Shown piece by piece: positions 7,991-8,151 of a stretch of 24,814 nt of DNA. The translations under genes and the position numbers were made by a program. The notes under the pieces are model-generated. The model worked only from the letters and a program-made list of their open reading frames with translations. It was not told where the DNA came from and did not search any database. Each line of letters begins with the position of its first letter. Position 1 is the first letter of the stretch. Origin of the DNA: Candidatus Jordarchaeum sp. LHC_1308 (lineage in GTDB: Archaea; Asgardarchaeota; Jordiarchaeia; Jordiarchaeales; Freyrarchaeaceae); assembly GCA_019057675.1 (NCBI GenBank), contig JAHLWX010000025.1:1-24814 (forward strand), read 5' to 3'.

Positions 7991-8151
7991 TCGCTGGGCG
8001 CCATGACGTGAAAGTCAAGCCCACATGCGATTCGGCGAGTACTGCTGTGCGGGAGCCAGCGGGAAAACCGAATACTGGCGCTACGGCGCCGGTCATAGCA
8101 TGTGGGGTCTACCCGTTCTCATGCCGAACACGGATTCATGGCGTCCAGCGA
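7991..8151 (+). rRNA. circularly permuted 5S rRNA gene; precursor includes a 16-bp leader/trailer stem; predicted mature circle is 8013-8134
   Basis: 8013-8081 (AGUCAAGCCCACAUGCGAUUCGGCGAGUACUGCUGUGCGGGAGCCAGCGGGAAAACCGAAUACUGGCGC) corresponds to the 3' part of archaeal 5S. 8086-8134 (GCGCCGGUCAUAGCAUGUGGGGUCUACCCGUUCUCAUGCCGAACACGGA) corresponds to the 5' part. All five helices form: I 8074-8081/8086-8093, II 8098-8106/8020-8028, III 8113-8116/8130-8133, V 8030-8035/8068-8073, IV 8042-8047/8057-8062. Confidence 0.85.

Follow-up and report, generated by a model that had tools for sequence, protein, structure and literature searches.

A circularly permuted 5S rRNA gene with a relaxed bulge-helix-bulge motif in Jordarchaeum and related archaea

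Introduction

Permuted transfer RNA (tRNA) genes encode the 3' part of the molecule ahead of the 5' part, as described for Cyanidioschyzon merolae (Soma et al. 2007, as cited in PMC4267664). The same order is seen here in a 5S ribosomal RNA (rRNA) gene, located at positions 7991-8151 on the forward strand of a 24,814-nucleotide (nt) stretch of the Asgard archaeon Candidatus Jordarchaeum sp. LHC_1308 (assembly GCA_019057675.1, contig JAHLWX010000025.1, positions 1 to 24,814). This whole stretch is called the window below. An original prediction, made from its letters alone, had proposed that the leader and trailer of the element pair into a bulge-helix-bulge (BHB) motif, and that cleavage and ligation at this motif would restore the loop B sequence of 5S rRNA within a 122-nt circle.

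Chan et al., in 2011, are said to have found permuted tRNA genes in Thermofilum pendens as well. As for archaeal rRNA, the 16S and 23S precursors form the same kind of leader/trailer BHB, from which they are excised by EndA and circularised (PMC7758197; PMC12918454; bioRxiv 10.64898/2026.03.23.713588). A 2026 paper places 5S, unlike 16S and 23S, outside this excision and circularisation pathway (PMC12918454). A full-text literature search, with most subscription journals outside its reach, found no report of an archaeal 5S gene that is permuted or flanked by a BHB.

Results

Identity and fold of the RNA

At the curated gathering threshold of the Rfam 5S model (RF00001, 38 bits), no 5S was found in the 24.8-kb window. 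With a permissive threshold, two sub-threshold matches appear in swapped order: 7996-8084 corresponds to the 3' half of a 5S (18.6 bits), and 8085-8174 to its 5' half (19.4 bits). The canonical 5S of a haloarchaeon, Halovenus marina, has 99 bits with the same model, and the sub-threshold score of the window is due to its gene order. This order is 5S positions ~51-120, then a UACG tetraloop at the site of the normal 5' and 3' ends, then positions 1-50.

When 8085-8134 is joined to 8013-8084, RNAfold gives, unaided, the canonical three-way junction of 5S at -56 kcal/mol. The re-joined RNA is identical to the Halovenus marina 5S at 81 of 122 positions, without internal gaps, and in this alignment the CCGAACACGGAAGU-AAGCCC block crosses the proposed junction. 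The conserved 5S blocks, namely CAUAG of loop A, CCGAAC of loop C, CGGAAGUNAAGC and AGUAC...GGGAA of loop E, are invariant or nearly so in 37 sequences. In terms of stability, the 161-nt precursor reaches -86.2 kcal/mol, compared to -59.1 +/- 4.1 for shuffled sequences (z = -6.6), and none of 200 shuffles was as good. The identification of 7991-8151 as a circularly permuted 5S rRNA gene is supported, and its parts are the following.

8013-8134, forward strand: permuted 5S as it would be excised, 122 nt (Rfam half matches, fold, own covariance model at 114.9 bits, Halovenus alignment)
8020-8028, forward strand: helix II, 3' strand CCCACAUGC, partner 8098-8106 (inverted repeat; compensatory change in 7/7 modelled pairs)
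8030-8035 with 8068-8073, forward strand: helix V, with loop E at 8036-8041 and 8063-8067 (minimum-energy fold)
8042-8050 with 8055-8062, forward strand, within the same 8030-8073 region: helix IV, with loop D at 8051-8054 (minimum-energy fold)
8074-8093, forward strand: helix I as a closed hairpin, 8074-8081 with 8086-8093, capped by UACG at 8082-8085 (fold; 7/8 pairs compensatory)
8094-8112, forward strand: loop A CAUA at 8094-8097, helix II 5' strand at 8098-8106, loop B 5' strand at 8107-8112 (Rfam, fold)
8113-8133, forward strand: helix III, 8113-8116 with 8130-8133, and loop C at 8117-8129 including CCGAAC (Rfam, fold)

A covariance model of our own was built from 37 sequences in genomic order and finds exactly one copy per locus, with 86-129 bits. 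In its alignment, which is fitted to the model and favours structure, 96% of the cells form a standard pair, compared to 67% when shuffled, and 28 of the 34 pairs have double-sided (compensatory) changes. The covariation score is 0.785, against 0.227 for shuffled sequences and 0.11-0.15 with the partners slid. Considering only the region of helices V and IV (8030-8073), 13 of 15 pairs are compensatory. Pair 8116:8130 of helix III covaries too, being UA in 20 sequences, GC in 12, AU in 4 and CG in 1. Furthermore, RNAalifold, applied independently to a plain MAFFT alignment, also gave helices II, III, IV and V, and the compensatory changes followed the same pattern. MAFFT had misaligned the helix I hairpin, which RNAalifold hence missed; the sequences were re-aligned to the covariance model.

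The processing motif

The leader, 7991-8006 (TCGCTGGGCGCCATGA), pairs with the trailer, 8136-8151 (TCATGGCGTCCAGCGA), over 16 base pairs (bp) with a single G:U (G7998:U8144), exactly at the coordinates first given. Further inwards, the 3-nt bulge G8133-A-U8135 on the 3' strand and a central helix of four Watson-Crick pairs, C8007-G-U-G8010 with C8129-A-C-G8132, were also recovered as proposed. On the 5' strand, A8011-A-A8013 is indeed unpaired, but it is not the bulge of the proposal, being the edge of a larger loop without a closing inner helix. The inner helix itself (U8015:A8127, C8016:G8126), already called weak in the proposal, is not supported, as 0-1 bp were found there in the window and in every relative. 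With no supported inner helix, the motif takes an hBH or bulge-helix-loop form, and the suspicion of a relaxed BHB was therefore correct.

The window has two 3-nt bulges, the 5' one in the open form just described, on opposite strands and spaced by a 4-bp helix. Each strand, from 5' to 3', reads helix, 4-bp helix, bulge, helix. This is the genuine BHB orientation, judged from what is established for tRNA introns at position 37/38. The strict hBHBh' form, with helices flanking both sides, is not reached: across loci, the outer helix has 5-16 bp and the inner one 0-1 bp.

7991-8006, forward strand: outer (processing) helix, leader strand (inverted repeat; covariation over 32 distinct loci)
8007-8010, forward strand: BHB central helix, leader strand CGUG, partner 8129-8132 (pairing)
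8011-8013, forward strand: 5' unpaired AAA, with a predicted cut at A8012/A8013 (archaeal splicing endonuclease rule)
8129-8132, forward strand: BHB central helix, 3' strand CACG (pairing)
8133-8135, forward strand: 3' bulge GAU, with a predicted cut at A8134/U8135 (a bulge of 3 nt here in 38/38 loci)
8136-8151, forward strand: outer helix, trailer strand (inverted repeat; covariation)

The archaeal splicing endonuclease is established to cut after the second bulge nucleotide on each strand. Applied to the window, this standard rule yields 8013-8134, of 122 nt as first calculated, and ligation would join ...CGAACACGGA to AGUCAAGCCC, restoring the conserved CGGAAGUCAAGCC. Seen more widely, the same predicted junction joins ...CCGAACACGGA to AGUCAAGCCCACAUG...

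Competition between the central helix and helix III, another point of the original prediction, holds as well. Positions 8130-8132 are common to both helices, and G8133 is the fourth 3'-strand base of helix III. The two are thus mutually exclusive, and the precursor needs a processing-specific fold. The BHB conformer has -84.2 kcal/mol, 2 kcal/mol above the minimum-energy fold at -86.2 kcal/mol.

Covariation of the stem in homologous loci had been suggested as a check, and it was found. Taking 32 distinct loci together, the seven outer-helix pairs nearest the bulge show 3-6 pair types at each position and are paired in 96.9% of cases. This value falls to 45.7% (maximum 57.6%) with the trailers swapped between loci and to 34-46% with the partners slid. 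Compensatory changes are visible in the loci L010 and L011 (L-numbers denote the homologous loci). Cognate trailers pair over a mean of 11.5 bp and non-cognate ones over 3.5 bp, this being a noisy control in which some non-cognate trailers, with GC-rich or related stems, come out high. As for the central helix, relatives have 3-4 pairs, and pairs 1-3 are kept in 30-32 of 32 loci.

The register of the motif was searched through 168 combinations of bulge positions per locus, scored by the number of base pairs alone. The register with the most pairs restores CGGAAGNYAAR in 37 of 38 loci and in 15 of 15 clusters, an outcome that only 2.2% of the registers would give. Three registers occur (the slash marks the junction).

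GGA/AGUC: most Jordarchaeia loci including the window, Baldrarchaeota, and the divergent unlabelled L060
GGAA/GU: Jordarchaeia-like L011/L032, Hodarchaeota, Heimdallarchaeota-type groups and others
GGAAG/UU: Helarchaeota-type

In each lineage, the four bases of the leader are complementary to the correspondingly shifted part of helix III, so that the three registers give an identical product.

Loci with a short outer helix (5-9 bp) have a second, more distal leader/trailer helix, as in L015 and the Heimdall-type L035, L036 and L055. Examples are GAGACGCGTG with CACGCGTCTC in L015, TTGCGA with TCGCAA in L036 and TTGCGC with GCGCAA in L055. On the 3' side, a large asymmetric loop (13-21 nt) sets it off. 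These four loci have no TATA-like box directly upstream, which suggests a longer precursor.

Occurrence in other genomes

Six further syntenic contigs (L004, L006, L007, L008, L010, L011) share the element, with 87-95% identity. Among GTDB species genomes, a pattern specific to the permuted 5S gave 12 true cases, labelled as Jordarchaeia, Baldrarchaeota, Hodarchaeota, Helarchaeota, "Promethearchaeati" and unnamed archaea. This first pattern required AAGCC after the junction and missed the Heimdall-type AAGUC, AAGUU and AAGCU, so the GTDB genome list is an undercount. A looser pattern added 36 loci from JGI metagenomes. Discarded as chance matches or ordinary haloarchaeal 5S were 10 of 22 genome matches and 1 of 37 metagenome matches (L068). 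The total is 38 distinct loci, forming 15 clusters at 85% identity.

Through their neighbouring proteins, other groups are connected with Heimdallarchaeota and Hodarchaeota, and the L071 group with a record under the label Korarchaeota. The permuted 5S is also found on two Mb-scale Heimdallarchaeota records, CP070695.1 (4.94 Mb) and CP070665.1 (1.39 Mb). At the Rfam gathering score, a 5S was detected in none of the 18 homologous loci tested.

Some individual loci deserve a comment. At L071:3990-4111, the permuted 5S has an outer helix of 13 bp, and the thermosome gene on its contig is identical to proteins that NCBI lists as Candidatus Korarchaeota; either this label is wrong or the trait reaches beyond Asgard archaea. 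L032 (JAPDJY010000015.1) is titled "Thermoproteota archaeon", with a permuted 5S and flanks near-identical to those of L011/L012, whose proteins are labelled Freyarchaeota, and its title is probably a taxonomic mislabel. Besides the real copy at 3570-3691, L027 has a weak second match to the permuted 5S model some 250 nt further upstream (3223-3315; 22.7 bits, E = 0.005), which could be a degenerate duplicate or chance.

Rfam also reports over-long tRNA genes of 86-124 nt that probably carry introns (L013:3294-3379, L042:5418-5517, L066:5047-5170), all three missed by ARAGORN. In Hodarchaeota-type loci, this tRNA and the permuted 5S share a strand, with the tRNA 100-250 nt upstream, and co-transcription is possible. 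In the L042 tRNA-Phe (anticodon GAA), the extra sequence seems to be in the D-arm, a non-canonical position.

Genomic context

The permuted 5S unit lies in a gap of 500 nt, with a thiolase gene on one side and a hypothetical gene, starting at 8269, on the other. Its neighbours are ordinary metabolic genes, without an rRNA operon. Homologues of the neighbouring protein carry the labels Candidatus Freyarchaeota or Jordarchaeales, as expected for an Asgard archaeon. The putative transcription signals are the following.

7955-7969, forward strand: putative archaeal promoter, with a purine-rich sequence resembling a B recognition element (BRE), GAAAAGC (7955-7961), then a TATA box, TTTATATT (7962-7969)
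8156-8159 and 8164-8167, forward strand: two T4 runs, a likely archaeal oligo-T terminator (from the sequence)

The block GGAAAAGC-TTTATATT (7954-7969) has its 3' edge 21 nt ahead of the leader helix, and from this position of the TATA box a transcription start at ~7990 is predicted. Most Jordarchaeia loci keep a GGAAAAGCTTTATATT block at -27 to -32, slightly altered in L008 and L011/L032, while the surroundings diverge. By comparison with the known archaeal consensus, the BRE/TATA block presumably acts as a promoter. T-runs are found 3' of the trailer in most loci. Judged by such consensus signals, 7955-8167 looks like a self-contained archaeal transcription unit.

Two mechanically called open reading frames (ORFs) overlap the 5S unit, 7972-9150 (forward strand, 392 amino acids, aa) and 7890-8096 (reverse strand, 68 aa). 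Both were rejected as spurious; the gene calls of identical contigs start the neighbour at the ATG at 8269. Homologues of this neighbour (window 8269-9150) are deposited at L010:3001-4113 and L008:3001-4104 as calls of 370 and 367 aa, versus 293-300 aa. These long calls begin upstream and cross all or most of the permuted 5S (3007-3129 in L010, 2968-3089 in L008), which looks like mis-annotation due to an undetected RNA gene.

Elsewhere in the window, the sole RNA gene reported by standard tools is an intron-less tRNA with a CAT anticodon (17129-17204, reverse strand, 62.5 bits). An AT-rich region of ~1.15 kb (14850-16015; GC 0.33-0.40 vs ~0.49 elsewhere) lies between a POR gene cluster and three small hypothetical genes, and contains no ORF above 67 aa and no Rfam match. 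Lastly, a short AT-rich tandem repeat (5881-5921, a 20-nt unit x 2) is found in the gap between MarR-like and DUF35 genes.

Discussion

With its gene rearranged in this way, the 5S would become a functional RNA only after cutting and re-joining. We propose that a transcript beginning at ~7990 would contain, one after another, the 5S part from loop B over helix II (3' strand) and helices V and IV as far as the helix I 3' strand, the UACG tetraloop, the helix I 5' strand, loop A, helix II (5' strand) and helix III with loop C. The 16-nt leader would pair with the 16-nt trailer, and the adjoining CGUG would transiently pair with the 3' strand of helix III, giving the relaxed BHB. The splicing endonuclease EndA would cut after A8012 and after A8134, leaving A8134 with a 2',3'-cyclic phosphate and A8013 with a 5'-OH for the RNA ligase RtcB to join. 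Ligation would recreate the conserved CGGAAGUCAAGCC strand and leave helix III free to refold. The product would be a covalently closed 122-nt 5S rRNA, which may itself enter the ribosome. Asgard genomes examined so far encode an (alpha-beta)2 EndA with an L1 loop, a feature tied to relaxed-BHB cleavage (PMC5829648).

We consider it likely that this is a permuted 5S with a relaxed BHB, from which EndA and RtcB would restore loop B as a 122-nt circle. Given permutation and processing, the weakest step is the circle as mature form, and here our judgement only leans in its favour. There are also indications that the permuted copy is the only 5S gene: an exact 26-mer search found no canonical-order Jordarchaeia junction in the metagenome collection that holds the permuted copies, the closed genomes of Heimdallarchaeum are described as ones where 5S genes "could not be predicted" (PMC8813620), and the two Mb-scale Heimdallarchaeota records have the permuted gene.

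Several observations weigh against this interpretation. The BHB conformer makes up only ~5-8% of the computed ensemble, versus ~52-56% for helix III. All loci lack an inner helix (0-1 bp), and just 16 of 32 keep the fourth central pair, so that the substrate is clearly non-canonical. In terms of gene content, the exact 26-mer would miss a divergent canonical paralogue, and the sequence covered at each locus extends to at most 25 kb. For one metagenome-assembled genome (MAG) of Jordarchaeum, "a 5S rRNA gene" is listed by Sun et al., the method being unnamed (PMC9723677), which makes a canonical copy elsewhere in such genomes possible.

The circle could instead be an intermediate, opened by a second nuclease at the helix I cap to leave a conventional linear 5S, which we regard as unlikely. 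Such a route has a precedent in permuted tRNA genes, where RNase P and tRNase Z open the circular intermediate (Soma 2007, as cited in PMC4267664), and the circular pre-16S and pre-23S rRNAs of archaea are generally thought to be re-linearised (PMC12918454). Twelve of the 37 helix I caps, moreover, are plain 3-nt loops and not special tetraloops. On the other hand, the linker measures 3-6 nt in 37/37 sequences, without a spacer or a conserved sequence for a nuclease. Structural caps are seen in 21 of 37 (15 UNCG, 4 CNCG and 2 GNRA tetraloops), and helix I has 7-13 bp, with the cap always directly on top. Ribosomes also tolerate a capped helix I, as an engineered Escherichia coli 5S, in which a 4-nt connector bridges the native ends, is functional in them (PMC7283268), and circular 23S rRNA has been reported inside archaeal ribosomes (PMC12918454). 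As a tight loop caps helix I in every lineage, the circle itself is the most likely ribosomal form.

Ligation might also be absent. The precursor would then be trimmed by EndA or another nuclease, and the mature 5S would be linear and permuted, with its ends side by side in loop B. A nick at this point leaves the RNA in one piece, and permuted mature 5S rRNAs are known from stramenopile mitochondria (PMC4267664). We find this quite improbable, as the ends left by EndA are exactly those that RtcB joins, and BHB-excised pre-rRNAs occur as circles in the archaea studied (PMC12918454; bioRxiv 10.64898/2026.03.23.713588). Furthermore, the three shifting cut registers still have ends that sum to an uninterrupted CGGAAGNYAAR of fixed length. 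Moving cut sites with a constant junction are the pattern expected if strand continuity is selected.

There is very little chance that the leader and trailer are a generic processing or stabilising stem for another RNase, with a coincidental likeness to a BHB. The relaxed motif, the lack of an inner helix, the often unpaired fourth central pair and the preference of RNAfold for helix III would fit such a stem. What it leaves unexplained is that a 3-nt bulge on the 3' strand stands beside a 3-4-bp helix in 38/38 loci, despite wholly different outer-helix sequences between clusters, and that the BHB cut rule gives the correct junction in 37/38 loci, against 2.2% expected. Lastly, the locus might be a pseudogene in decay, or a tandem 5S array wrongly assembled, in which read-through between adjacent copies would look permuted. 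Both were rejected as effectively refuted by the conserved architecture and by compensatory evolution strong enough to rule out decay. The "copies" are separated by only 4 nt forming a tetraloop, the flanks are unique and mutually complementary, and independent assemblies from NCBI, JGI, ENA and Logan contain the same locus or homologues of it.

Returning to the spliced circle, a broader claim can be made: that in many Asgard lineages (Jord-, Baldr-, Hel-, Hod- and Heimdallarchaeia) the tRNA-splicing machinery turns the product of a permuted gene into a mature 5S in the form of a covalently closed circle, that the trait is old in Asgard archaea and possibly reaches Korarchaeota, and that this is the reason for the "missing" 5S of closed Asgard genomes. 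For this claim as a whole, we see the chances as evenly balanced.

5S rRNA is a universal component of the ribosome, with a gene deemed trivially easy to find, and here it was missed by standard annotation (Rfam/Infernal at curated thresholds). A permuted layout in many Asgard lineages would explain undetected 5S genes, including those of the closed Heimdallarchaeum genomes (PMC8813620). MAG standards that require a 5S gene would then wrongly penalise Asgard genomes. Mis-annotation is a further consequence, as at least two NCBI records have a protein-coding call that runs across the RNA gene. Our reading predicts a naturally circular 5S rRNA, would extend EndA/RtcB-dependent "RNA rearrangement" from tRNAs to an rRNA, and contradicts the current view of 5S outside the circularisation pathway (PMC12918454). 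The lineages concerned include the sister groups of eukaryotes, and the result bears on ribosome biogenesis in the archaeal ancestor of eukaryotes.

Comparison with known systems

The 5S of brown-algal and other stramenopile mitochondria (Valach et al. 2014, PMC4267664) also has helix I as a closed hairpin and a permuted order, and was also missed by standard models. Its ends, however, are at the three-way junction and the mature RNA is linear and permuted, with no BHB or ligation, so that breakpoint, domain of life and mechanism all differ from the present case. The engineered circularly permuted 5S (cp5S) of E. coli (Huang et al. 2020, PMC7283268) likewise has a 4-nt connector between the native ends and gives active ribosomes, but it is artificial, opened in loop C or D and fused into 23S rRNA, and not a free circle.

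In some archaeal lineages, the 23S is present in the ribosome in a circular or permuted form (PMC7758197; PMC12918454; bioRxiv 10.64898/2026.03.23.713588). The 16S and 23S genes of archaea are collinear, and it is their natural ends that are joined, whereas here the gene itself is permuted and ligation would create an internal, conserved part of the RNA.

In terms of gene layout, the locus resembles permuted RNA genes, having a 3' segment upstream of a 5' segment, in one transcript, with a BHB at the termini. In permuted tRNA genes, a leader/trailer BHB at the re-joining point is likewise cleaved by an EndA-type enzyme, and ligation restores the strand, as we propose for the 5S. The two differ in the linker between the mature 3' and 5' ends. 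In the tRNA genes, this is a spacer removed by RNase P and tRNase Z to linearise the molecule; in the 5S it is only a 3-6-nt hairpin cap, and the circle would perhaps never be reopened.

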